64,000 nt of DNA from a phage, in sequence record PX421306.1; one strand, given 5' to 3'. The translations under genes were made by a program, and so were the position numbers. Positions 2,152 to 50,689 of this stretch are shown here, one piece after another (the stretch's first letter is position 1; each line of letters starts with the position of its first letter). The notes beneath the pieces are model-generated. The model did no database searches. It was not told where the DNA came from and saw only the letters and a program-made list of their open reading frames with translations.

Positions 2152-2532
2152 TCACTTAGTCAAATTTTTTACACATGAATTATAAGAATTTACTACATAC
2201 TCCATCGGAGCATTTTTACCAGTACGCCATTGGTAATTATTAGCCCAATTTGCCCAAAGTTCAGCACAGTAGTTTTCAATTTTTTCTTCACGCGTAATCA
2301 CATCTGAATTACGATATGCTTGTGCAGATTCATCTGGACGAATAGCTTCGTCAAAATTCGCCTGCATTTGTTCTACTGTCTGTTTTGGAGCCTCTTTATA
2401 ACACTTGACGTTAGGATTATAAAATTTGCTTGAACAGTTTACAATTTTTCCTACATCAGACTGATTTACTACTGGTCCTTGAGCTACACATCCAGTAAGA
2501 CCCAATGCAATAACCAAAATAGCGATTTTCAT
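2152..2532 (-). CDS. hypothetical lipoprotein
   Basis: 126 aa; N-terminal signal with lipobox LTGC; several Cys; between imm and gene 43. Confidence 0.55.
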   Translation of the reverse strand: MKIAILVIALGLTGCVAQGPVVNQSDVGKIVNCSSKFYNPNVKCYKEAPKQTVEQMQANFDEAIRPDESAQAYRNSDVITREEKIENYCAELWANWANNYQWRTGKNAPMEYVVNSYNSCVKNLTK

Positions 2533-2542
2533 AATAATTTCC

Positions 2543-2779
2543 TCAAATACAAGTAGTAATTACTCCAGTAGTGCTTACACAGGTATTACCTAATTGAACA
2601 CCCAGCGTTCCATTAGTATTCATATGAAGATTATCATCAATTTTTGTTGATACTTTACCATTCATGTGAATAATAGTATTAGATTCAATCACATTCTGAG
2701 TGTCATTTTCAATATCAATAAATGGAACAGTTGCTAATGCAACTAAACACACTGCTAAACAACCATAAACAATTTTCAT
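2543..2779 (-). CDS. hypothetical small secreted protein
   Basis: Start trimmed to MKIVYG (signal-peptide-like N-terminus) with GGAG RBS; the track ORF extension is translated promoter/leader sequence. Confidence 0.5.
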   Translation of the reverse strand: MKIVYGCLAVCLVALATVPFIDIENDTQNVIESNTIIHMNGKVSTKIDDNLHMNTNGTLGVQLGNTCVSTTGVITTCI

Positions 2780-2804
2780 TTTATTCTCCAAATCCGTATC
2801 AGTT

Positions 2805-2868
2805 GATAGTTGTATAGTATCATGGAAGAACGGGAATGTAAACAGTTTTGTGAAAAAAATTTTTAATG
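2805..2868 (-). promoter_or_regulatory. T4-type early promoter with conserved leader cassette
   Basis: Minus strand: A/T-rich UP region, GTTTAC (2837-2842), 18 nt, TGaTACTAT (-10 at 2814-2819); leader nearly identical to the copy at 29258-29318. Confidence 0.6.
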
Positions 2869-2925
2869 AATTTACAGGACCTAGAATCATCTATTTTTCC
2901 TAAGTATAGATTTATATTACTTGTA

Positions 2926-2948
2926 TGAAAAAGGGACCCGGAGGTCCC
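2926..2948 (-). terminator. intrinsic terminator downstream of gene 43
   Basis: Minus-strand hairpin GGGACC-UCCG-GGUCCC followed by a U-run. Confidence 0.6.
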
Positions 2949-2961
2949 TAGATTTATTCTA

Positions 2962-5658
2962 TCAGCCAAACAGGAAGTCTAACGAAGCTTTTTCTTCATA
3001 GTCCATACCCGCCGATTCACACATACCCGCAAGCGGTTTAACAAACGATTTTTGGAACAAAGTTGAGTAGTCAATCCAAGATAGTACGTCAGAGCGAATT
3101 TCTTTTGGAAGTTCCGTACCCGACGGCCAAGCAATACACTTGTCACCAAATGGATTTCCCTCACGTAATGGAAGAACCATTACCTTATTTCCATCCAAAA
3201 TTGGAGCTACACCTAAACCACTAACAGCTCGACGATAAGTTAGTACACCACGAATATGGAACGGGCATTTAAACCCTGGCCAACCTTTATCGTCATATTT
3301 CGCTATATCGTTCGCGGTTTTTACTTCAGCAATAACTTTATAGTCAAGTTGACGGTATTCTTTCTCAAAGTTCTTATAGTATTCTTGGACAGACTCTTCG
3401 CCTTCCTGAAGAATACGACGAATACTTTCTTCGAGAGCTTCTTGTACTGCTTTTGGTGTTGAACTCTGCTGAGTTTCCATACCCATGATTTTTAGATGCG
3501 GTTCAGCAAATCGCTTATCTTCCATATCATAAACGTTCAGAGCATAACGTTTTTTCGCTTTCCAAAATCCACCAACACCCTTTGAACCAAGTGGAGGGCA
3601 AGAAATAGCTTCACGGTCCATATGCATCAGATGCTCGCGGTTATTCATATAATCACATAACTCACGATATGCAACATCAATCATAGGTTCCATCTTTTTC
3701 TTACCAAACTGATTCATGAATTCAACTAAATCATTTTGTTCTTTAAAGCGATCAAGACCTACTTTTTCAATTACTTTATCTACACAAACATATACCGAAT
3801 CAGTATCACCCGCGGCGATGAAATCTTCACCATCAGTTCCACATACTTTATTCAGATATTCATTAATTTTGCGAGCAATCCACTGAATACCGACTTGACC
3901 GAAAATTGTGATAGCAGTAGCATTTCGCAAATCATAGTAACGGAAATGAATATTACCAAGAGCACCATAAAGACTGTTGATAAGAATTTTACGGTTCAGC
4001 TGATTTGTGTTAGCAAGTGTAGCTGCTTTTTCACATTCTTCGATCAGACTATTAAGAACAGATTCGGTGTAATTCGATAATTCGTTTAAGAAATCATCAC
4101 TGAACTTAACATATCGTTCAACTTCTGGTTTAGTTGAGCAAGACCCTGCACCTTTCATAATAATCTTTTTAATAGCTTCGGCATTCATTTCTTCAGCGAA
4201 CATTTTCTTTTTCCAATCTTTACGCTGGAAAAATACTTTAGCGATTTCCTTTGGAATGATACCTTCTTGGTGCTTATCATACATCCATCCATTCGGAGAG
4301 CAAGAATATTCATCACTTGGCTTAGGAGCTGTTCCTGCGATATATTCATGAATTGGATGAACTTTAAACTGTCCACGAATAGTCTCAGGACTAATGTTAA
4401 CCTGACGAATAATGCTAGGATACAGAGACGTCAAGTCAAAACTCATAATGTATCGACGAGCAATCGGTTTAGGTTCAAACACAAATGCACCTGGAAAACT
4501 CTGTTTAACGTGCGAACCTTGTTGAGGAATAACCTTATGTTCACCTTTCAATGAGTTAAAAATAATAGCATCCCAAGTTTTAATAGGACTCATTACACCA
4601 GAAAAAGGCATTTTAGCATAATAAGACATACTTAAAACTAGATCGATAAACCCACGAATTTTATCAATTGCTTGAACTGATTCTACGTCAATAATGTTAT
4701 AACTAATGTATCGTTGATGATTAGTCTCACGAAGTTTATTAATAGGACCATCGTACGGCAATTTACCTTTTTTGGTTTCATGTTGAGCAACTGATTCCAA
4801 AGAGAACGATGGCAAATTAGTAAATGCGAATTTTTTGTACAAATCTAAATAATCAAGAATAGATACGCCATCAATAGAATAAATTTCTTTGCTACCGTAC
4901 ATATTTTGAATTAGTTTAGATTTTACTCGACCGATTGGAGAGAAGCGTTTCATACTGCGTTCGCCCAGAACCATTTTAACGCGATTCATGATATACGGAA
5001 CGTCAAATCCCTCAATATTCCAACCGGTAAAAATAGCAGGTCGTTTCTGTTCCCAGAGATTAATATATTCCATGAGCATATCACGCTCATTATCGAATGG
5101 CATATAAATTACTCGGTCAAGAATTTCTTGAGGAACTTCATCACCACCTTCACAGTCAAGCTTAGCAGCTAACTTTGCATCCCATTTTGATACTGAACCG
5201 TACATTGAATTCAACAAATCAAAGACGTAAAAACGGTCGTCAATTGAATCGTAATGAGTGATAGCATCAATTTCATATTCTGCTTTCATTGGGTCAGGAA
5301 ATTTATCACCAGTAACCTCAATGTCACAGTTAGCTACACGAACAAATTTTCGGTCATAAACAATTTCTGAACCATATGTATCACTGATATAAGCGAGTTT
5401 AAAATCGTTCATACCGAGAGCTTCGAGACCGATGTCTTCCATTCGTTTCATCCAATCTCGTGCATCTTTCATTGATGGAAATTTTTGAGGAGCACAGTTT
5501 TTACCATAAATGTCTTTGTATTTTGACTCTTCCTTACAATGCCTAAACATAGTCGGAAGATATTCTACTTCACGAGTACGTTCCTTTCCGTTTTCATCAA
5601 TATAACGCTCAACAATATTATTTCCGACTGTTTCGATAGAGATATAAAATTCTTTCAT
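2962..5658 (-). CDS. 43: DNA polymerase gp43 (family B, with 3'-5' exonuclease)
   Basis: 898 aa, near-identical to recalled T4 gp43 over its length. Confidence 0.97.
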   Translation of the reverse strand: MKEFYISIETVGNNIVERYIDENGKERTREVEYLPTMFRHCKEESKYKDIYGKNCAPQKFPSMKDARDWMKRMEDIGLEALGMNDFKLAYISDTYGSEIVYDRKFVRVANCDIEVTGDKFPDPMKAEYEIDAITHYDSIDDRFYVFDLLNSMYGSVSKWDAKLAAKLDCEGGDEVPQEILDRVIYMPFDNERDMLMEYINLWEQKRPAIFTGWNIEGFDVPYIMNRVKMVLGERSMKRFSPIGRVKSKLIQNMYGSKEIYSIDGVSILDYLDLYKKFAFTNLPSFSLESVAQHETKKGKLPYDGPINKLRETNHQRYISYNIIDVESVQAIDKIRGFIDLVLSMSYYAKMPFSGVMSPIKTWDAIIFNSLKGEHKVIPQQGSHVKQSFPGAFVFEPKPIARRYIMSFDLTSLYPSIIRQVNISPETIRGQFKVHPIHEYIAGTAPKPSDEYSCSPNGWMYDKHQEGIIPKEIAKVFFQRKDWKKKMFAEEMNAEAIKKIIMKGAGSCSTKPEVERYVKFSDDFLNELSNYTESVLNSLIEECEKAATLANTNQLNRKILINSLYGALGNIHFRYYDLRNATAITIFGQVGIQWIARKINEYLNKVCGTDGEDFIAAGDTDSVYVCVDKVIEKVGLDRFKEQNDLVEFMNQFGKKKMEPMIDVAYRELCDYMNNREHLMHMDREAISCPPLGSKGVGGFWKAKKRYALNVYDMEDKRFAEPHLKIMGMETQQSSTPKAVQEALEESIRRILQEGEESVQEYYKNFEKEYRQLDYKVIAEVKTANDIAKYDDKGWPGFKCPFHIRGVLTYRRAVSGLGVAPILDGNKVMVLPLREGNPFGDKCIAWPSGTELPKEIRSDVLSWIDYSTLFQKSFVKPLAGMCESAGMDYEEKASLDFLFG

Positions 5659-7854: not shown

Positions 7855-7888
7855 AATTTCCTCATTCAAGTTTTAGTGTAAATTATAA

Positions 7889-7902
7889 AGGGCCGAAGCC
7901 CT
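7889..7902 (-). other. stable tetraloop hairpin between genes 45 and 44
   Basis: GGGC-UUCG-GCCC on the minus-strand transcript. Confidence 0.5.
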
Positions 7903-7905
7903 CTA

Positions 7906-8592
7906 TTAAAAATCGTGGGTAGAATCAGCTTCAAGAGCTACTACATAATTCGCATGTTCACCTTCAAATTTAGCAGCGCCTTGTTTACCTTTTGCCCAGA
8001 GAAGAAGTTTATAATTTCCTGGTTGCATTTTCATATTTGCCATATTGATAATGAAATTAAATGTATTTTCACCATCATAATCACCAAGAGTCAAAGAATA
8101 TTTAACACGGGTCAAAGCAGAATCTTCTACTTTGTTAAAACCGTTAATTACAATTTTACCTTCTTTTACTGTGATAGCAATTGTATCAATCTGCAGACCG
8201 CGAGATACACGCAACAGCTGTTGAAGGTCTTCAGCTTTAATTTCAGTAACAACAGATGCTACCGGGAATGGAATTGGTTTATTAGGAGCAACTACTGTAC
8301 TCGGATCAGCTGCTGGCCAAAAAATTGTTGAACGGGCATCAGCAATTTTAATATTTCCATCTTCTGACTGGGAAATTTCTGCATCGTCATTAACTAGAGA
8401 CAGAATACCTAGAAAACCGTTCAAATCGTAAATTGCTACATCAAAATCAATAGTGTCAGAAATATTTGCTTCTGCATAAGTTGTACCATTAACCGCGCGA
8501 GTCATAATAAATTGACCGGATTTAAGCATAATACCGGAGTTAATAGTAGCGAAATTTTTAAGCAGAGCAGTAGTATCTTTAGACAGTTTCAT
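7906..8592 (-). CDS. 45: sliding clamp gp45
   Basis: 228 aa, T4 gp45 length and position. Confidence 0.93.
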   Translation of the reverse strand: MKLSKDTTALLKNFATINSGIMLKSGQFIMTRAVNGTTYAEANISDTIDFDVAIYDLNGFLGILSLVNDDAEISQSEDGNIKIADARSTIFWPAADPSTVVAPNKPIPFPVASVVTEIKAEDLQQLLRVSRGLQIDTIAITVKEGKIVINGFNKVEDSALTRVKYSLTLGDYDGENTFNFIINMANMKMQPGNYKLLLWAKGKQGAAKFEGEHANYVVALEADSTHDF

Positions 8593-12573: not shown

Positions 12574-12612
12574 TATATCAAACTCCGTATAAAGCTAAAG
12601 GGCCGAAGCCCT

Positions 12613-13815
12613 TTATTTTGTAATAATGTCAAACTGTTCTTTAAAGCAGAAGCTTGAATCTTGATGCTGATACAAAAATTCATAAGCTTTTTCACGTTCA
12701 CGGTCATAAAGAGCTCGGTCAGATGACAGTTCTTTAATACGTTCAAATGTTGATTCCATGTCATTTTCATCAAACCAAACGATACCGCTATCATGAGAAA
12801 TTAACGGAGTATTATCAACACGGAATTTTAAATTTTCGCCAGTAGATTTCCAAAATACTGGAATTGTTCCACATGCACCAAGCTCGAGATGAGTGTATTC
12901 TAAAGAACGCTGTAGATATTTTTTATCTAATTTACTCAGCTGATAACCAAATCCGGATTTACTCATGCGTTCAAGCATTTCGCTATTTACATAACGGTCG
13001 AGAATTTGCGTTGGCAAATTAGGAGCAATTTTAATTTGGTCTACTTGATGAAGACGATAATACTCGTATGGAATTCCTTTTTCTTTAATAGGAATGAATG
13101 CTGGAGAACGTTCCAGACCTTCCATAACAGTACTTAGTCCTGCGGGTTTAAGATGTTTTTCGTGAAAATCAAACATCTGATAAAAACCTTTCCATGTAGT
13201 AGTACGACCAATCCAACGGTTGATATTCATGTTAATTTCAGAAACATCTTTCCAGTAAGTTGATCGAACCTTCGCAATATCCATAGGAGGCTGAAAGTTA
13301 TATACGGTCGGTGCTTCTTCAATATCATCAAACAGAGAAACAGTTTCCGGATACCATTCTTTCATTAAAACTTTATTAAAATCACCATTATCAGAATGGC
13401 TAAAAATAACATCAGCTTGACGAACAGTTTCTTCTAATCCCAAATTTCGGCGCAAAGAAAGAGAAGAATGGTCATGTTGATAAACTACAACACGAACCGA
13501 AGGTTTAATGTTATCAATAATTTTTTTATAGTTATTAATTGTGTCTTCTTCAACTGAAGTAGCAGGAACTGAATTGATAATTAGAATATCACAATCATTT
13601 ACCAGTTTAAGTGTTTTATCGTATTCTTTTGCCAATAAAACCGGAATTGAAAATGATTTATAATCATGCGCGCAATTACGGGTAAATGATTTATCTTTAG
13701 CATAAACCAAAGTTACTTCATGACCATTTTTAATAAACCAATCACGCTGCTCAAGAGAAAATTTAGTTACGCCACAACCTTCAAGACCTCGAGCCATAAA
13801 AATGCATACTTTCAT
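12613..13815 (-). CDS. agt: DNA alpha-glucosyltransferase
   Basis: 400 aa, near-identical to recalled T4 a-gt (MRICIFMARGLEGCGVTKFS...). Confidence 0.92.
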   Translation of the reverse strand: MKVCIFMARGLEGCGVTKFSLEQRDWFIKNGHEVTLVYAKDKSFTRNCAHDYKSFSIPVLLAKEYDKTLKLVNDCDILIINSVPATSVEEDTINNYKKIIDNIKPSVRVVVYQHDHSSLSLRRNLGLEETVRQADVIFSHSDNGDFNKVLMKEWYPETVSLFDDIEEAPTVYNFQPPMDIAKVRSTYWKDVSEINMNINRWIGRTTTWKGFYQMFDFHEKHLKPAGLSTVMEGLERSPAFIPIKEKGIPYEYYRLHQVDQIKIAPNLPTQILDRYVNSEMLERMSKSGFGYQLSKLDKKYLQRSLEYTHLELGACGTIPVFWKSTGENLKFRVDNTPLISHDSGIVWFDENDMESTFERIKELSSDRALYDREREKAYEFLYQHQDSSFCFKEQFDIITK

Positions 13816-17084: not shown

Positions 17085-17125
17085 TGTTAATAATACCACA
17101 GTTTGAACTTCTTGTAAACAACTTT
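17085..17125 (-). promoter_or_regulatory. T4-type early promoter
   Basis: Minus strand GTTTAC (17114-17119), 18 nt, TGgTATTAT. Confidence 0.55.
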
Positions 17126-27271: not shown

Positions 27272-27799
27272 TTATGCGAGTACCGTCTTTAACCGTTCTT
27301 CAAACTTCCGAAGAGTATTTTGGCGTTCAGCTCTTTGCTTTTTGTAAGTTTCAATACGCTCTGAAATGAGAGTGTATCGTTCATTTACTGATTCTTTCAT
27401 AAAATCAGGAATTTCACGAGAAGCTTTAATCTCGTCAAATTTATCAATAACAGCTTGCTCTTCAGCAATTAAGTTATCATACATTAAAATATCTTTCTTG
27501 ATGAACTCAATATCTTCTTGAGTTACACGAGATAATTTAGATGCTTTATCCTTTTTGTACTGTTCGTTAGTATCACGAGACCAGTGTAATGTACGATTTT
27601 TATTCGTATTTTTGTAAATTTCTACAATACCGATCTCATCAATAATAACGATCCAATTCCAACGCGATTTGTAAATTTGTCCTCCATCAACAGTGATTTC
27701 ACCTCCGATTGAGATGTCATTAAAGAACTTGCTTTGTGCTTCAGATTTAAATTTACCATCGTTGTAATTTACCAAGTTGAAAATATCTTTAGCGTTCAT
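27272..27799 (-). CDS. hypothetical protein
   Basis: 175 aa; charged helical C-terminus; early promoter upstream. Confidence 0.5.
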   Translation of the reverse strand: MNAKDIFNLVNYNDGKFKSEAQSKFFNDISIGGEITVDGGQIYKSRWNWIVIIDEIGIVEIYKNTNKNRTLHWSRDTNEQYKKDKASKLSRVTQEDIEFIKKDILMYDNLIAEEQAVIDKFDEIKASREIPDFMKESVNERYTLISERIETYKKQRAERQNTLRKFEERLKTVLA

Positions 27800-27819
27800 T
27801 TTCTGTTCCTCCGTAGTTG

Positions 27820-27865
27820 ATAGTTGTATAGTACCACAGAGAAACAGTCTTGTAAACCACTAAAA
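27820..27865 (-). promoter_or_regulatory. T4-type early promoter with conserved leader
   Basis: GTTTAC (27852-27857), 18 nt, TGgTACTATAC. Confidence 0.55.
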
Positions 27866-28174
27866 GAAACTTCTTTCACAATTTTTTCCACTGAACCATG
27901 CGCTCACTGCTTTCTTAGTCTCAGGAGCAGTGTTATCCATAAACCATTCAAAGGCAGCCTTTTTATGATTCTGGAGGGCTTCTCGGGCTTTAATCTGCTC
28001 ACGGTCTATTAACACTAACATATGAGCCTTTCTTGTCACCATGGGCTTCTTATGATTTTTTGAATACTCCCAGTCATTTGTCCATCGCATTGTCGTTGCG
28101 AACTGAAATACTGCTTCTTTAATTTTAGTTTCGTAAATTTCACGAGCCTTTGAGTATAACATCATTACCTCCAT
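27860..28174 (-). CDS. hypothetical protein
   Basis: 104-aa ORF. Confidence 0.45.
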   Translation of the reverse strand: MEVMMLYSKAREIYETKIKEAVFQFATTMRWTNDWEYSKNHKKPMVTRKAHMLVLIDREQIKAREALQNHKKAAFEWFMDNTAPETKKAVSAWFSGKNCERSFF

Positions 28175-28263: not shown

Positions 28264-29232
28264 TTATTTCAGAAGAGTAACCTCAGCAATTTCTTCCCAA
28301 CCGTTTTTGTCGGTCATAATAAAGTCAGCAAGATAAAGAGCAGTACGCAGTGAAACATTGCGTAAACGGTTAACATTAACTTTCATCCATGATAATGCTT
28401 TATAAGTTTCTTCATCAGAAAGACCACGCTTTTGCATCATGTCAGTTGAAAGAATAACATCTTCAACCCTGACCATAATTTCTTCATTAGTGTGAACACC
28501 CAAATCCAAATAAACCGAGCGGGACACTAATGCTTGTAAATGTGGAGCAAGTTTAGTACCACGGTCTAATTCGCGGTCAATGTCAACGTTTGTGATAAAA
28601 ACAATCGTTCCTTTAAATTCAAACTCACGGTCAATGCCTTTTTCTTCTAAGTAAGAAGACGCAGTGCTCCAGCAGACTTTACGGGTCTCTCCAGTGTCCA
28701 GAGCAGCTTTTAGAAGATTAAGAATGTCCATATCAGAGAAAACATCCACATCATCAATTAAAAGGACAGAATTCTCTTCACGATTATTCCAAAGCTGCTC
28801 ATAAAGACCAATACCAGAGATTTTACCATTAATGCTTTTATATTCAATGTATCCAATATCATTTGCTTTATTTAAAGCTTTATCTAAAGAATACGTTTTA
28901 CCAATACCTGCTGCGCCAGAGATAATTAATGAACGAATATTTCCATTAATAATACCGTTCGTCATCATTCCCATAACATTAAATCTTTTATTAATGCGGG
29001 TTTTCATATCTTCATATGATTCTTTAACTTCTTCAACTTTTACACCATCATATGAAATATCTGATTTGTAAACCCAAACACCGCGACGTTTACCGTCAAT
29101 TTCAACAAAAACTTTACCATCTCCTTGTGCATCTACCGGAGCATTATCTGGGAACCATTCGCCTAAGAGCTCAAAAGTTCCAGAGATTTCTTTACCGAAG
29201 TAGATACCCTTATTGATAGTTACAGTTTTCAT
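28264..29232 (-). CDS. P-loop NTPase (AAA-like ATPase), function unknown
   Basis: Start trimmed to MKTVTINKG; Walker A GAAGIGKT and Walker B VLLIDDVD. Confidence 0.6.
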   Translation of the reverse strand: MKTVTINKGIYFGKEISGTFELLGEWFPDNAPVDAQGDGKVFVEIDGKRRGVWVYKSDISYDGVKVEEVKESYEDMKTRINKRFNVMGMMTNGIINGNIRSLIISGAAGIGKTYSLDKALNKANDIGYIEYKSINGKISGIGLYEQLWNNREENSVLLIDDVDVFSDMDILNLLKAALDTGETRKVCWSTASSYLEEKGIDREFEFKGTIVFITNVDIDRELDRGTKLAPHLQALVSRSVYLDLGVHTNEEIMVRVEDVILSTDMMQKRGLSDEETYKALSWMKVNVNRLRNVSLRTALYLADFIMTDKNGWEEIAEVTLLK

Positions 29233-29257
29233 TTTATTCTCCAAATCCGTATCAGTT

Positions 29258-29318
29258 GATAGTTGTATAGTACCATAAAGCTTTATGCTTGTAAACAGTT
29301 TTGTGAAAAAATTTTTGA
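29258..29318 (-). promoter_or_regulatory. T4-type early promoter with leader cassette (duplicate of 2805-2868)
   Basis: GTTTAC (29291-29296), 18 nt, TGgTACTATAC; leader through the ATG nearly identical to the copy upstream of 2543-2779. Confidence 0.6.
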
Positions 29319-29321
29319 AAT

Positions 29322-29346
29322 AAAAAAAGGGAGCCCGAAGGCTCCC
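29322..29346 (-). terminator. intrinsic terminator
   Basis: GGGAGCC-UUCG-GGCUCCC then U7 on the minus transcript, just after the stop of the 29349-30362 gene. Confidence 0.7.
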
Positions 29347-29348
29347 TA

Positions 29349-30362
29349 TCATTTATAATAACTTCGATGGTTTTCAAGATAAACCCTCTCAAGGAAGTCA
29401 TCCCAGAAACCCATGTCTACTTTTTGCTGCATACCGTTCTTAGAAGCTTCAATAGATGCTGCTTCTACTTGATCGACCACATCTTCCAAAAACTCTTGAA
29501 CAGTTTTAAATGGGTGTTTACCCAGCTTCACGTCGAGAATAAATGGAGCGTCTTGAAGTGGATAGACTAAGTCACCAGTTTTGTAAATTTCCAATAGTTG
29601 GAGTCCACCACGACAAGCATGACTCAGAGCTTTCCAGTCAATACCTTCATTAGCTTCAGCCTTACGAGCGCGCTCGCCATATTCAGCATCAAGTTTATTC
29701 AGGGATTGCTTGAGCTCTGTAATTGATAACGTTGTTTGGTACTTACGTCCGAGAACAGTATAGAACGTTTGTGGACCTGTTTTCTCATGGTTATGGAATA
29801 CCCATTCACAGAATTCGTTTTCTGGAAGACGGTGTTTAATATCTGCAATTTTAGTACGACGTTGTCCTTGTGTTCCATCTTCTCGGTAATCAATCCACTG
29901 CTCAGGGATTTGATTAACTACTTTCAATACATCACGTAATGCAGCCAAACGAGAACCTTTGACACCGTATTTAGAAGCTTGCTTGCGGACATATCCTAAA
30001 TATGATTTCATGTTAGTTGTATAAAAACGAGAACGGTTGTCTTGAATAAACTTCCACACATCAGGTAAATCAGATTTAACCACTAGTTCAGGTGGAGTGT
30101 GAAGCATATCTAATGCTACGGTTTCACCATCTGCTGCTAATTTAAAGAAATATTTAAGACTGTATAGTTCATGGTCAATATCATCTTTAGTGTTTTTAGA
30201 TGATGTGTTGTTAGTGTTTTTACTCATATGCTCTTTAACATTTCCGATAAGAATATCACGAGCAGGAGGAACAAAGATTTCTTTAAAATCTACATCAGAT
30301 TCTGGAGTAGAAGTTCCATAAAGATGACTACCAAAATAGCTTTTCATTACTGTTTTCATCAT
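29349..30362 (-). CDS. nucleotidyltransferase-fold (pol-beta superfamily) protein, function unknown
   Basis: 337 aa; GSHLYGTSTPESDVDF matches hG[GS]x9-13DhD plus a downstream Asp (ALDMLH); long C-terminal extension. Confidence 0.6.
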   Translation of the reverse strand: MMKTVMKSYFGSHLYGTSTPESDVDFKEIFVPPARDILIGNVKEHMSKNTNNTSSKNTKDDIDHELYSLKYFFKLAADGETVALDMLHTPPELVVKSDLPDVWKFIQDNRSRFYTTNMKSYLGYVRKQASKYGVKGSRLAALRDVLKVVNQIPEQWIDYREDGTQGQRRTKIADIKHRLPENEFCEWVFHNHEKTGPQTFYTVLGRKYQTTLSITELKQSLNKLDAEYGERARKAEANEGIDWKALSHACRGGLQLLEIYKTGDLVYPLQDAPFILDVKLGKHPFKTVQEFLEDVVDQVEAASIEASKNGMQQKVDMGFWDDFLERVYLENHRSYYK

Positions 30363-33126: not shown

Positions 33127-33149
33127 GATGTTCTCCTCTTTATCCGATA

Positions 33150-33190
33150 GTTGTATAGTATCACAGCTCAAATGGAAAGTAAACCGGTAA
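33150..33190 (-). promoter_or_regulatory. T4-type early promoter with conserved leader
   Basis: GTTTAC (33179-33184), 18 nt, TGaTACTATAC (33155-33160). Confidence 0.55.
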
Positions 33191-33199
33191 AATGAAAAA

Positions 33200-33217
33200 A
33201 GTCTCCCGAAGGAGACT
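33200..33217 (-). terminator. intrinsic terminator
   Basis: AGUCUCC-UUCG-GGAGACU then U-run, immediately after the stop at 33222. Confidence 0.6.
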
Positions 33218-36861: not shown

Positions 36862-37323
36862 TCATTGAGTTTTAATTACTGCTTTAGAAGCCTTTCCTGG
36901 TAAACGACGACTGTTAATAATTGCCATCCTGCACTGAAGCGACGGGTCTTTGAACTTCGCATTAGGTTTACAAACTGTAAATCCAAGCCAAAGATTTCCA
37001 TCTGTGATTTCTAAACGTCCAGGACGATATTCAATCCCATCAATAAAATCCTCGTCAATGTCAGGACGCGGAGGCATACTCAGGAATTCATTAACTTCTA
37101 AAACATGGTCTTTTATTTTATGGAATAATTCAAAAACATATGTCTCATCAATCTCCCGTTGAATTGCACGATCAAGAAGATGTTGAGAATATTTTAGATG
37201 AAACGATGAGACCCCTGCTGCTTTTGATGCCTCACGAATCTCATTGTTAATTTGACGAAACTCCGACTCAAAGTGACGACGGAGCTTATTTCGACGGATA
37301 AAAACTTCTGTGTTGATAGTCAT
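36862..37323 (-). CDS. regB: site-specific endoribonuclease RegB
   Basis: 153 aa, near-identical to recalled T4 RegB. Confidence 0.88.
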   Translation of the reverse strand: MTINTEVFIRRNKLRRHFESEFRQINNEIREASKAAGVSSFHLKYSQHLLDRAIQREIDETYVFELFHKIKDHVLEVNEFLSMPPRPDIDEDFIDGIEYRPGRLEITDGNLWLGFTVCKPNAKFKDPSLQCRMAIINSRRLPGKASKAVIKTQ

Positions 37324-37344
37324 GTTATTCTCCTCTTAACTGAT

Positions 37345-37385
37345 AGAAAAATTATACCACAGTCAAGAGGAAAAGTAAACAGTTA
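37345..37385 (-). promoter_or_regulatory. T4-type early promoter upstream of regB
   Basis: GTTTAC (37375-37380), 18 nt, TGgTATAAT (37351-37356). Confidence 0.6.
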
Positions 37386-40332: not shown

Positions 40333-40749
40333 TTAAATGTAAATATTTTTGCCGTAATACTTGTACCAGTGTGGCTTCATTAAAATTTTTTCATCGAGTC
40401 GTTGTTGACTCAATTTAATAGCTGATTTGCATGGATTATAATCATTTTTCCATTCTGCTGGAATATCACTGATGTCAGGAACTTCAGTATCTTTTATACT
40501 AAACCCACGTTTTAAGCATTCCGTTATAATGTCTGATTGACGCTTTCGCAAAAATTCTAACTTATCGTAAAAGAACGTAACATGACCAGAACCTAAAATA
40601 AACTCGGAAGATATTTTAAAATCTTTAACCCGCTTACCATTTGCCACGTGTTTACGAACTATACCAAAAACACGTGGCAATTCACGGTATTCTGCGATTA
40701 AATGCTGATCAGCAAGTTCAGATACTAAAGTCAAATTAATACGAGTCAT
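40333..40749 (-). CDS. denV: endonuclease V (pyrimidine dimer DNA glycosylase/AP lyase)
   Basis: 138 aa; [17 protein letters not shown]...WYKYYGK matches recalled T4 endo V. Confidence 0.92.
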
Positions 40750-40769
40750 TTTATCCCTCCAAGTAACTG

Positions 40770-40808
40770 TGAATATACTATCACAATTCTAGGAGAAAGT
40801 AAACCACT

Positions 40809-43573: not shown

Positions 43574-43614
43574 TCCTATTTACTCCAAGTAATAGGGGCC
43601 GAAGCCCCTTATCA

Positions 43615-45351: not shown

Positions 45352-45615
45352 TTATTTCATATTATTGAAATATTCTTCTGCGATTTCGTCGTTATCATGA
45401 TAAACTTTAGAAGACAGTTTAACATAACCTTCTGCTGTGAACATGTTAATCACAACCTTTACAGTATACCACTGACCGTCTTCATTACCCATTACTGCGT
45501 AAGTTTCAAACATCGGATGATCAGGACCGATAACTTTAATATCATTCACTGTACGACCGAAATCTTCTGAAACGCATTTCATAAAGAAGTTGAACAGTTC
45601 GCCGTAATTATCCAT
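45352..45615 (-). CDS. hypothetical protein
   Basis: Start trimmed to MDNYGELF with GGAG RBS; track extension covers the promoter leader. Confidence 0.5.
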   Translation of the reverse strand: MDNYGELFNFFMKCVSEDFGRTVNDIKVIGPDHPMFETYAVMGNEDGQWYTVKVVINMFTAEGYVKLSSKVYHDNDEIAEEYFNNMK

Positions 45616-45654
45616 TTCATTCTCCAAGTTGTTTTTCTGTATCAGTAGTTGATA

Positions 45655-45695
45655 GTTGTATAGTACCATGGAAGAACAGGGATGTAAACAGTTTT
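45655..45695 (-). promoter_or_regulatory. T4-type early promoter with conserved leader cassette
   Basis: GTTTAC (45684-45689), 18 nt, TGgTACTATAC; same cassette family as 2805-2868 and 29258-29318. Confidence 0.6.
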
Positions 45696-45822
45696 GTGAA
45701 AAATTTTTTAAAAAGTTTTAGGGAATTCTAGGGAAGGGAGGGGCAATTAAAAGGTAGGATAATATATTATAAAGGGTATAAACTAAATGATGCCTAGAGA
45801 GATCCAGAAAGGCCTAGATGCC

Positions 45823-45847
45823 AAAAAGCCCTATCATTTAGATAGGG
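45823..45847 (-). terminator. intrinsic terminator
   Basis: CCCUAUC-UAAAU-GAUAGGG then CUUUUU on the minus transcript, after the stop at 45856. Confidence 0.6.
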
Positions 45848-46419: not shown

Positions 46420-46510
46420 TTAAAATCCTTGAAATAATCTATCGGTTGGTTATTAATTATTTATTACTTTGTTATTATCCGTAACAGCATTCTCTATGTG
46501 ATTCAAACTA

Positions 46511-46534
46511 AAAACCCCAACCTTTCGGTCGGGG
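46511..46534 (-). terminator. intrinsic terminator (duplicate of 47077-47102)
   Basis: CCCCGACC-GAAA-GGUUGGGG then U-run on the minus transcript. Confidence 0.6.
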
Positions 46535-46543
46535 CTAAGAATG

Positions 46544-47017
46544 TTATTTGATTTGTTTAGCAGACCAAATGCGGTCTTTGATGATTTTTTGGATGTCTTC
46601 AACATACTCTAGGTCATGAGCATGTGGGTTATCTTTGAAACTATAAGCACGAGCTAGTTTTTGGCCTTCAGTTTTGATTACTAAAAGCTCTTTAAGGATA
46701 GCTTCATATTTAGCGATAATTCCTTTAACAATATTTTTTTCTTGTGCAGCTTTAGGATCTGCTTTAGGAGCAGGTTTACCCGAAGCCTTTGCAAAAGCAG
46801 CACCAGTAGCAACTAAACTTTTCCAGGCCATACTAACCGCATTTCCTGTAAATCCTTCTGCTTTCATGTCGCGAGCAAACTGGAATCGTGATTCGTCAGA
46901 AGCATCTTTATAGGAATATTTACCCGCTGCAATGGCTGCTTTTGCGACAGCTTGAATTTCGGTGCTAGATGCTTCATTTAACACCGCTTCATTTAAAAAT
47001 TGAGCATATGATTTCAT
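46544..47017 (-). CDS. capsid-targeted internal-protein-like protein (extra IP)
   Basis: 157 aa; N-terminal MKSYAQFLNE targeting-like sequence; Ala/Lys-rich. Confidence 0.55.
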   Translation of the reverse strand: MKSYAQFLNEAVLNEASSTEIQAVAKAAIAAGKYSYKDASDESRFQFARDMKAEGFTGNAVSMAWKSLVATGAAFAKASGKPAPKADPKAAQEKNIVKGIIAKYEAILKELLVIKTEGQKLARAYSFKDNPHAHDLEYVEDIQKIIKDRIWSAKQIK

Positions 47018-47064: not shown

Positions 47065-47076
47065 CTAAAAAGCCCC

Positions 47077-47102
47077 AACCTTTCGGTCGGGGCTAAGCCT
47101 TG
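47077..47102 (-). terminator. intrinsic terminator
   Basis: AGCCCCGACC-GAAA-GGUUGGGGCU then U5. Confidence 0.6.
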
Positions 47103-49556: not shown

Positions 49557-49579
49557 TTTATTCTCCTCGGTAGTTGATA

Positions 49580-49620
49580 GGGTAATAGTATCACAACTAA
49601 AACCCTATGTAAACAACTTT
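49580..49620 (-). promoter_or_regulatory. T4-type early promoter
   Basis: GTTTAC (49609-49614), 18 nt, TGaTACTAT. Confidence 0.55.
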
Positions 49621-49632
49621 GTGAAATATTTA

Positions 49633-49920
49633 TTACAAAAGATTTTTAGCAATAATCTTGAGATGTGCCGCAGAAATGTGTTTAGCTTTAAACAACGCAG
49701 TTTCTTCAGCAGGAGAGATAATGATTGTAGCACCATCCTTTTTAGCAGACCACCCATCACCTAGGTAAACAGTACCTTTGATTTCTTCGCCATCAACCAA
49801 ACTAATCATTGGTTTACCTTCTCGTCCTTTATTTGCTTTAATAACTTCAGAAGTAAGAGTAGCTTCAGTAATAGTAGAAACCGGGGTAGTTGTAGAAGTA
49901 AATTCTTTGAAAGTTTTCAT
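49633..49920 (-). CDS. ipI: internal protein I (injected inhibitor of GmrS/GmrD-type restriction)
   Basis: 95 aa; C-terminal 75 residues match the recalled T4 IPI mature sequence; N-terminal targeting sequence MKTFKEF. Confidence 0.85.
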   Translation of the reverse strand: MKTFKEFTSTTTPVSTITEATLTSEVIKANKGREGKPMISLVDGEEIKGTVYLGDGWSAKKDGATIIISPAEETALFKAKHISAAHLKIIAKNLL

Positions 49921-49944
49921 TTTATTTTCCTAATTAATTTTGAT

Positions 49945-49985
49945 GAGATAATAGTATCACTACCTCATCAACGTGTAAACAACTT
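49945..49985 (-). promoter_or_regulatory. T4-type early promoter upstream of ipI
   Basis: GTTTAC (49975-49980), 18 nt, TGaTACTAT (49951-49956). Confidence 0.55.
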
Positions 49986-49992
49986 TGTGAAA

Positions 49993-50689
<697 letters not shown>

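Follow-up and report, generated by a model that had tools for sequence, protein, structure and literature searches.

Near-identical T4-type early promoter and leader cassettes at two loci of a Tequatrovirus genome, and the exchange of small genes around them

Two segments of about 92 nt in the 64,000-nt stretch of phage DNA analyzed here (PX421306.1, hereafter the window) carry nearly the same early promoter, leader and start codon in front of two different genes. These segments, copy 1 at 2773-2864 and copy 2 at 29226-29317, lie on the minus strand, 26 kb apart. We consider them best explained, with a probability of about 0.85, as T4-type immediate-early expression cassettes with a RegB-type leader, which form an ancestral pair and at which recombination drives the exchange of small genes. 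The anatomy of the cassettes, their membership of a larger promoter family, and the breakpoints and mosaics seen in related genomes carry this reading.

The region of the window around the copies matches Escherichia phage vB_EcoM_SA21RB at 99.9% identity and hundreds of Tequatrovirus (T4-like) genomes at 90-99%, and the source of the window is evidently a Tequatrovirus (T4-like coliphage). Its early genes are on the minus strand, where all cassettes were read. Copy 1 is preceded by the end of gene 43 (DNA polymerase) and followed by a small ORF, imm.1 and imm, and copy 2 sits between nrdC.11 (RlaP-type nucleotidyltransferase) and nrdC.10 (Table 1).

Table 1. Features of the two cassettes, their cargo genes and related cassettes in the window.
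Feature	Coordinates	Strand	Basis or detail
Intrinsic-terminator-like hairpin, gene 43 end	2932..2949	-	7 pairs, 5 G-C, then T-run; annotated terminator in OL960580
Copy 1 A/T-rich UP-element-like tract AAAAATTTTTTTCACAAAACT	2844..2864	-	19/21 identical to copy 2
Copy 1 core promoter	2814..2843	-	GTTTAC(A) -35 at 2843-2837; 17-nt spacer ending TG; -10 TACTAT at 2819-2814
Copy 1 predicted 5' leader	2780..2807	-	predicted start A2807, 7 nt past -10; identical to copy 2
Copy 1 Shine-Dalgarno GGAGAATAAAA	2779..2789	-	last A is the A of ATG
Copy 1 cargo, ORF-X, 78 aa, phrog_4189	2543..2779	-	PHROG profile and GenBank annotations
imm.1, after ORF-X	2152-2532	-	position
Terminator hairpin, nrdC.11 end	29328..29347	-	8 pairs, 6 G-C; T-run merges into copy 2 UP tract
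Copy 2 A/T-rich UP-element-like tract CAAAAATTTTTTCACAAAACT	29297..29317	-	alignment to copy 1
Copy 2 core promoter	29267..29296	-	GTTTAC(A); spacer AAGCATAAAGCTTTATG; TACTAT at 29272-29267
Copy 2 predicted 5' leader	29233..29260	-	predicted start A29260
Copy 2 RegB-type Shine-Dalgarno GGAGAATAAAA	29232-29242	-	consensus match
Copy 2 cargo, nrdC.10 homologue, 322 aa, phrog_1250	28264..29232	-	PHROG profile, T4 map
Third close member, upstream of e.8 (ATG 45615)	45616..45712	-	91% identity to copy 1 over 66 nt
Member upstream of nrdC.8	27800..27880	-	has GGTACTATACAACTATCAACT in common
More distant member, upstream of mobD.5-like gene (ATG 33126)	33127..33207	-	terminator hairpin directly before
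Two further early-promoter cassettes, -35 at 49980 and 49614	49557..49993	-	flank ipI, precede trna.4

The initial annotation had described two nearly identical promoter and leader stretches differing only between the -35 and -10 elements, and a gapless alignment anchored at the G of GTTTAC (2843 vs 29296) confirms this, with best boundaries a few bases off the earlier coordinates. All the elements it had named, an A/T-rich UP tract, GTTTAC, TACTAT, a shared leader and the ATG, are present. The copies agree at 19/21 positions of the UP tract, 6/6 of the GTTTAC -35, 7/8 of the TGn plus -10, 33/33 of the transcribed leader up to the ATG and 7/7 of ATGAAAA. The 17-nt spacer matches at 6/17 positions, giving 11/17 mismatches there vs 3/75 in the flanks (Fisher p = 7e-8), and the 12 nt of coding sequence that follow ATGAAAA match at only 4/12. 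Outside the ~92 nt, no homology between the copies was seen.

The longest exact run common to both copies extends for 47 nt, from the -10 box to ATGAAAA (TACTATACAACTATCAACTGATACGGATTTGGAGAATAAAATGAAAA). Among the 120 pairs formed by the 16 GTTTAC-N17-TAnnnT early promoters on the minus strand of the window, the next-best shared run is 27 nt and the median 9 nt, which shows that the likeness goes well beyond the generic early-promoter consensus. Had it been confined to that consensus, the initial annotation would have counted its own reading as refuted. A 20-nt leader core, CTGATACGGATTTGGAGAAT, is found at exactly two places in the window, copies 1 and 2 (expected 0.01). The -10/start block TACTATACAACTATCAAC occurs exactly at four (2802, 27816, 29255 and 45648; expected 0.08 in the window), and once more, with 3 mismatches, at 33143.

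Both copies belong to a family of related cassettes. Those proposed earlier to precede the genes starting at 45615, 33126, 27799, 49556 and 49920 were all located, together with one extra at 17119. The e.8 cassette has copy 1's UP tract, spacer type and -10/start block, a leader with an insertion, and a terminator-like hairpin at 45829-45847 (minus strand), 139 nt before its -35. The spacer and leader of the nrdC.8 member recur at the imm.1 slot of other phages, and the cassettes at 49980 and 49614 and the promoter at 17119 have a common upstream type, TTTCACAAAGTTGTTTACA. TTTACA-N17-TACTAT is present at 2842-2814, 29295-29267, 45688-45660 and 27856-27828 (minus strand), sites that independent annotators label as T4-type early promoters. 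At relaxed stringency, the family was found at ~3090 places in 682 phage records of the GenBank phage collection, typically with 4-7 cassettes per Tequatrovirus genome. The exact 20-nt leader was recovered in IMG/VR at 5 loci on 4 contigs, which are too few for a census.

Both A/T tracts read like what we take to be a full UP element. The spacer of copy 1 is of the e.8 type (ATTCCCGTTCTTCCATG), and in both copies GGAG is followed by 7 nt and then by the ATG. The gene 43 hairpin lies 88 nt from the copy 1 -35, and the nrdC.11 hairpin 31 nt from the copy 2 -35, forming a compact terminator-promoter unit. Given a start at the A seven bases past the -10, the predicted leader length would be ~28 nt. 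Folding of four leader variants gave z-scores of -2.0 to +1.0, with the focal leaders not significant (z between -1 and +1), and comparison of 2400-3100 with Rfam (E<=1) yielded no family for the leader, returning a chance Rhizobiales sRNA match only; a structured RNA in the leader was rejected on these two grounds. A hairpin inside the focal cassettes that would hide the Shine-Dalgarno in read-through RNA was likewise rejected, being not significant at 2843 or 29296 (z +0.7). Such an internal hairpin is strong in other cassettes. A further 22 nt of the leader (AACTATCAACTGATACGGATTT) fit no known consensus and are not common to the window's other early leaders; their identity in the two copies is only partly accounted for by the reading favored here.

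The Shine-Dalgarno sequence GGAGAATAAAA is an 11/11 match in both copies to GG*AGRAYARAA (asterisk, cut position), the strong RegB/S1 cleavage consensus (Durand et al. 2006, as given by Uzan and Miller 2010, PMC3014915). Three matches occur in the 64 kb (expected 0.39), in copies 1 and 2 and in the trna.4 leader, and regB itself was assigned, by position against the T4 map, to 36862-37323. The sites at 2779-2789 and 29232-29242 both lie in early translation-initiation regions and are predicted to be unpaired. Like strong RegB/S1 cleavage sites, both leaders carry the exact consensus, and they are predicted sites of the enzyme.

The two cargo genes begin downstream of the starts given in the mechanical ORF list, in which the reading frames 2543..2890, 28264..29352 and 45352..45669 run through the promoters. 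The initial annotation had suspected over-extension of this kind, and these three ORFs are indeed too long: PHROG profiles begin at 2779, 29232 and 45615, and the annotations of T4 and other GenBank records agree with these starts. The closest GenBank record carries an over-extended, 348-nt version of the first gene (2543-2779), and the lesson for annotation is that ORF callers lengthen small early genes through these promoters. For nrdC.10, P-loop/AAA-like (AAA/STAND) matches fall below the Pfam cut-off (23 bits vs 27), and the ATPase label is plausible, not established.

We surveyed the imm.1 slot, which holds ORF-X in the window, in ~510 Tequatrovirus records, and a small sample, ~10 genomes per slot, was read base by base. 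ORF-X is present in 318 of the ~510 records, and the remainder are empty or contain ORF-Y, a gene of similar size (83 aa, phrog_18567) unrelated to ORF-X. T4, RB32 and ime09 have an empty slot, and in T2, Ac3, PhiZZ30 and KFS-EC3 ORF-Y takes the place of ORF-X. In a five-way alignment, the sequences stay collinear from gene 43 across the promoter as far as CAACTATCAACT, diverge completely, and rejoin at the imm.1 ribosome site GAGGAAATTATTATG. In T4 the leader is fused straight to ATGAAAATCGC of imm.1. Both ORF-X and imm.1 start with ATGAAAAT, and the T4 empty state would be the outcome expected of a deletion between the ATGAAAAT repeats, requiring only this 8-nt microhomology.

Typing of the imm.1-slot cassette in ten genomes distinguished three spacers, each found with both kinds of cargo. 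Type 1 (AAGACTGTTCTTCCATG) precedes an ORF-X-type gene in fPS-65 and ORF-Y in Ac3; type 2 (AAGACCGTTCCTCTGTG), which is also the spacer of nrdC.8 in T4, precedes them in AndreasVesalius and PhiZZ30, respectively; and type 3 (ATCCCTGTTCTTCCATG), which is also the spacer of e.8 in the window, in the window and KFS-EC3. The occurrence of all six combinations of spacer and cargo implies crossovers within the invariant block of ~21-45 nt that lies between them. The leader before ORF-Y (CAACTACGGAGGAACACAAAATG) is the nrdC.8 leader, and in PhiZZ30 the sequence is the same as that of the nrdC.8 cassette of T4 all the way from GTTTAC to ATGAA, which points to exchange between different loci and not between alleles only. 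By this typing, copy 1 of the window is a mosaic, an e.8-type spacer joined to an nrdC.10-type leader. Across phages, the imm.1-slot promoter carries three different leaders without apparent harm. Ordinary homologous recombination between orthologous loci of co-infecting phages could account for most of this reassortment of spacers and cargo, without the cassette having any special part in it.

At the nrdC.10 slot, the window, T4, T6 and RB32 have no extra gene, but many other records carry inserts. In SA21RB, one extra 66-aa gene (phrog_6200) is joined directly after CAACTATCAA, and nrdC.10 then follows with another leader. ECML-134 and EcNP1 have two extra genes and then a second early promoter, and in EcNP1 a window-type leader plus ATGAAAACT is fused to a foreign gene. 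In T2, a ModB-like ADP-ribosylase gene lies between two terminator-promoter units that have TTTTATTTCAAAAATTTTTCACAAA (~27 nt) in common. Over this ADP-ribosylase module, from its own UP/-35 region to the stop codon, T2 and the Salmonella phage STML-198, a Gelderlandvirus, are 96.8% identical, and the flanking nrdC.11 and nrdC.10 homologues of the two phages are only 66.7% and 75.2% identical. In STML-198, the module is followed by a 47-nt -10 plus leader of 95.7% identity, which lacks the -35 and stands before yet another gene. A promoter-bounded ADP-ribosylase module common to two genera points to recent transfer.

Across these phages, the same leader stands in front of five or more different genes. 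The upstream junctions of all variants read base by base fall inside the cassette, some in the UP/-35 region and others after CAACTATCAA(CT) or at ATGAAAA, and none of the inserted genes examined is an endonuclease by PHROG profiles. A comparison of cassette-flanked genes across T4-like genomes, proposed earlier as a check, finds small-gene indels and replacements with junctions in the cassette at both loci. By this comparison, both slots are hotspots at which genes have been inserted, deleted or replaced, and the breakpoints lie within the cassette.

The pair itself is old. In T4, imm.1, nrdC.10, e.8 and nrdC.8 are preceded by the same cassettes, and the same two copies are found at the same loci in T4, T2, SA21RB and IMG/VR contigs. 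The nrdC.10 spacer AAGCATAAAGCTTTATG is identical in all nine slot records examined, which include the window, T4, SA21RB, T2, ECML-134, EcNP1 and two IMG/VR contigs. Since T4 shares the cassettes and the nrdC.10 spacer is identical across records, the pair is best regarded as ancestral to the genus and inherited, with locus-specific spacers, and not as a fresh duplication. The earlier description of the cassette as duplicated stands insofar as there are two near-identical copies; it does not stand as a recent event, given that T4 and T2 hold both copies at the same loci with locus-specific spacers. A duplication model with a uniform rate of change is unfit, because 11/17 differences in the spacer lie beside 0/47 in the adjoining run. 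The flanks may be either under strong constraint or homogenized by exchange, and the comparison shows that exchange occurs.

The principle is already known from papers of 2010 and 2014, and T4 itself has the promoters. In phages RB49 and phi1, promoter-early stem-loops (PeSLs) consist of an AT-rich tract, a strong early promoter, a stem-loop, a Shine-Dalgarno and a start codon; their promoter and terminator activity has been demonstrated, and the stretch from the -10 to the ATG is one of the places where the crossovers of RB49 mini-circles lie (Arbiol et al. 2010, PMC2839356). The model was later widened to PST/T4, with the promoter TTTACW-N17-TAYWAT, and PeSLs were tied to gene exchanges in hyperplastic regions (Comeau et al. 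2014, PMC4122927). Both papers credit the idea to work on internal-protein loci, which they attribute to Repoila et al. (1994). T4 early promoters have an UP/-35/TGn/-10 "uber" architecture with additional consensus regions (Hinton 2010, PMC2988021).

The window cassettes resemble PeSLs in several respects. They fit TTTACW-N17-TAYWAT, with an AT-rich tract and with a Shine-Dalgarno and start codon at the 3' end, they lie beside small variable genes with indel and replacement junctions in the element, and the -10-to-ATG crossovers that we infer match those of the RB49 mini-circles. The STML-198 copy without a -35 resembles the "half" PeSLs of Comeau et al. 2014 (PMC4122927). The assignment of the cassette to the promoter-early stem-loop type holds for the form of the promoter. 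Hairpins lie upstream of the three closest copies, but a stem-loop just before the promoter is seen cleanly at the nrdC.10 copy only, a compact unit with the hairpin 31 nt before the -35; at the 2843 and e.8 copies the distance is 88 and 139 nt. The RB49/phi1 elements differ in having near-perfect TTGACA/TATAAT promoters and stems of G/C tracts, and are analogues of the window cassettes, not homologues. The cassette had also been called mobile, which the comparison supports in the sense of a substrate for homologous or microhomology recombination, but nothing shows an autonomous element.

The same UP/-35/TGn/-10 layout is found in the T4 early promoters (Pe), and the T4 imm.1, nrdC.10, e.8 and nrdC.8 sites have the same sequences; nothing essential sets the window apart, except that its imm.1-slot copy precedes a gene that T4 lacks and carries an e.8-type spacer. 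T4-early-promoter repeats also bracket swappable small genes at the internal-protein (IP) loci, as far as the work of Repoila et al. (1994) is represented in the later papers, and ipI of the window is arranged likewise. The IP-type cassettes (49980 and 49614) belong to another subfamily, of the TTTCACAAAGTTGTTTACA upstream type and with hairpins spanning the -10, whereas the focal copies have no such hairpin. The likeness to integron cassettes (attC/attI) is a functional analogy only, in that short conserved linkers permit the promoter-proximal gain and loss of single genes. In contrast to integrons, the window cassettes have neither an integrase nor attC, each has its own promoter, and exchange proceeds through general homologous or microhomology recombination.

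Could the likeness be a matter of convergence, with each element independently at its optimum for RNA polymerase, ribosome and RegB, and no common descent or exchange? T4 early promoters do carry consensus regions beyond the -35 and -10, the Shine-Dalgarno part fits a functional consensus and many of the window's early genes begin with ATGAAA, yet a 47-nt exact run against a median of 9 over 120 promoter pairs, taking in the ~22 nt of AACTATCAACTGATACGGATTT that other early leaders lack and a 20-nt core confined to the two copies, makes this highly improbable. Flanks identical at 72/75 positions would also fit a segmental duplication of recent date, or an error of assembly, in this genome alone; such an origin is scarcely credible when the same copies occupy the same loci in T4, T2, SA21RB and IMG/VR contigs, the spacers differ at 11/17 positions yet are conserved within each locus, and homology stops at ~92 nt.

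Two further readings concern the leader and the slots. The leader might be a regulatory RNA or an operator, for example a site bound by a translational repressor of the phage or by a small RNA, whose function keeps it identical. Its perfect conservation between paralogues, its conservation at 46 of 47 positions in the Gelderlandvirus copy and the 22 non-consensus nt with no assigned role would all fit, but the leader has no significant secondary structure or Rfam match, three leaders are tolerated behind the same promoter at the imm.1 slot, and the Gelderlandvirus copy adjoins a 96.8%-identical module, indicating recent transfer rather than long-term constraint; we judge this reading decidedly unlikely. 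It is also unlikely that the slot polymorphisms stem from homing endonucleases or random illegitimate recombination, with the cassettes as bystanders. T4-like phages are rich in homing-endonuclease genes, some nrdC.10/nrdC.11 slot variants (H40, H42 and H44) contain them, and the T4 empty state would need no more than an 8-nt microhomology. Against this stand the upstream junctions, which lie inside the cassette in every variant read base by base, the inserted genes examined, which are not endonucleases, and the T2 module, which is bounded by repeated cassette sequence.

We thus favor immediate-early expression cassettes that double as sites of recombination-driven exchange, for which promoter activity, start site, RegB cleavage and recombination pathway are predictions. 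Host sigma-70 RNA polymerase would be recruited by the UP tract, GTTTAC(A), the 17-nt spacer ending in TG and TACTAT, and transcription would start at the A ~7 nt past the -10 (2807 and 29260), yielding an unstructured leader of ~28 nt. Translation of the downstream gene would begin immediately and, within minutes, be ended by the RegB/S1 cut of GGAGAATAAAA, with the upstream terminator hairpin insulating the unit. The blocks flanking the spacer are common to several promoters, and the phage recombination system can cross over within them, in exchanges among co-infecting relatives as well as from one locus to another, producing chimeric promoters. The small genes that follow are inserted, deleted or replaced, each arriving with a promoter and ribosome site, and the flanks would be kept alike by function and exchange, leaving the spacers as locus-specific alleles.

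A more speculative extension, to which we give long odds, is that the invariant block GGTACTATACAACTATCAACT and the non-consensus leader form a preferred crossover or gene-conversion site, perhaps recognized by a phage factor or driven by promoter opening. If true, spacers, leaders and cargo would reassort as independent units across loci and even genera, an integron-like capture of genes without an integrase.

To the published principle, the window and its relatives add an imm.1 slot in which spacer, leader and cargo form a mosaic, with two spacer alleles matching other loci, the exact RegB-site match and the cassette-bounded module present in two genera. Their value is illustrative, as a clean example of accessory-gene gain and loss in T4-like phages. 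Short promoter and leader repeats of this kind may serve as ready-made expression signals and crossover points in one, which helps to account for the hyperplastic regions of T4-like genomes and for the quick turnover of their small genes without known function.

In the early cassettes before nrdC.8, at regB and at position 40804, the Shine-Dalgarno region is complementary to the -35/-10 spacer of the same promoter, so that a hairpin extending across the -10 element and masking the ribosome site is predicted for RNA reading through from upstream. The predicted minimum free energies are -22.6, -22.4 and -18.8 kcal/mol (z-scores -5.8, -4.9 and -2.9, respectively). In RNA started at the promoter itself the ribosome site is predicted to be open, its probability of being unpaired rising from 0.0 to 0.35-0.89 over these three cassettes. 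The spacer/Shine-Dalgarno hairpin is absent from the two focal copies, before the small gene and nrdC.10.

Features discussed in the text; positions refer to the window unless another DNA is named
Feature	Position	Strand	Remark
nrdC.8 cassette, spacer complementary to Shine-Dalgarno	27788-27857	(-)	predicted fold
regB promoter cassette, same	37312-37380	(-)	predicted fold
Cassette of promoter at 40804, same	40738-40804	(-)	predicted fold
Late-promoter-like motif TATAAATC	2909-2916	(-)	7/8 match to T4 late-promoter motif TATAAATA
Small gene start AUGAAAAUUGUUUAUGG	2762-2779	(-)	read from sequence
ModB-like ADP-ribosylase gene with own early promoter	250-1060 of L014 (phage T2)
Same	1500-2200 of L020 (Salmonella phage STML-198)
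Terminator hairpins AAAA(A/G)CCCCAACCTTTCGGTCGGGGCTAAG	46510-46539, 47068-47097		two, 30 nt, G/C stem; family D16
GGGCCGAAGCCC-type terminator hairpins	7881-7906, 12591-12616, 43587-43612		three; family D6

The ModB-like ADP-ribosylase gene, together with its early promoter, is 96.8% identical between T2 (Tequatrovirus) and STML-198 (Gelderlandvirus), vs. 67-75% for the genes adjoining this module. In T2, the 10-nt AAGCATAAAG occurs both 3′ of the ADP-ribosylase stop codon and inside the nrdC.10 promoter spacer, and the arrangement following the ADP-ribosylase gene in STML-198 lacks a -35 element. A deletion between the two AAGCATAAAG copies in a T2-type layout would give rise to this -35-less arrangement.

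Stem-loops are also repeated in the window. The AAAA(A/G)CCCCAACCTTTCGGTCGGGGCTAAG hairpins (97% identity, 558 bp apart) bracket a single ORF, 46544..47017, which has repeated stem-loops rather than promoters at its borders. The GGGCCGAAGCCC-type hairpins, with A/T flanks that are alike among all three, make up another small repeat family of terminators.

In the closest public record, OL960580, the small gene upstream of imm.1 is annotated as 348 nt (SA21RB_049), crossing the promoter and equivalent to 2543-2890 (-) in the window. A 237-nt gene starting at 2779 is supported by the PHROG profile and other records. The sequence at this start, AUGAAAAUUGUUUAUGG, resembles the SELEX consensus of the RegA translational repressor, AAAAUUGUUAUGUAA. 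The late-promoter-like TATAAATC, which is unchanged in 5/5 phages of the imm.1-slot alignment, sits downstream of the gene 43 terminator and ahead of the small gene's cassette. Because of this invariance, the motif is a candidate late promoter that may serve the imm.1 region.
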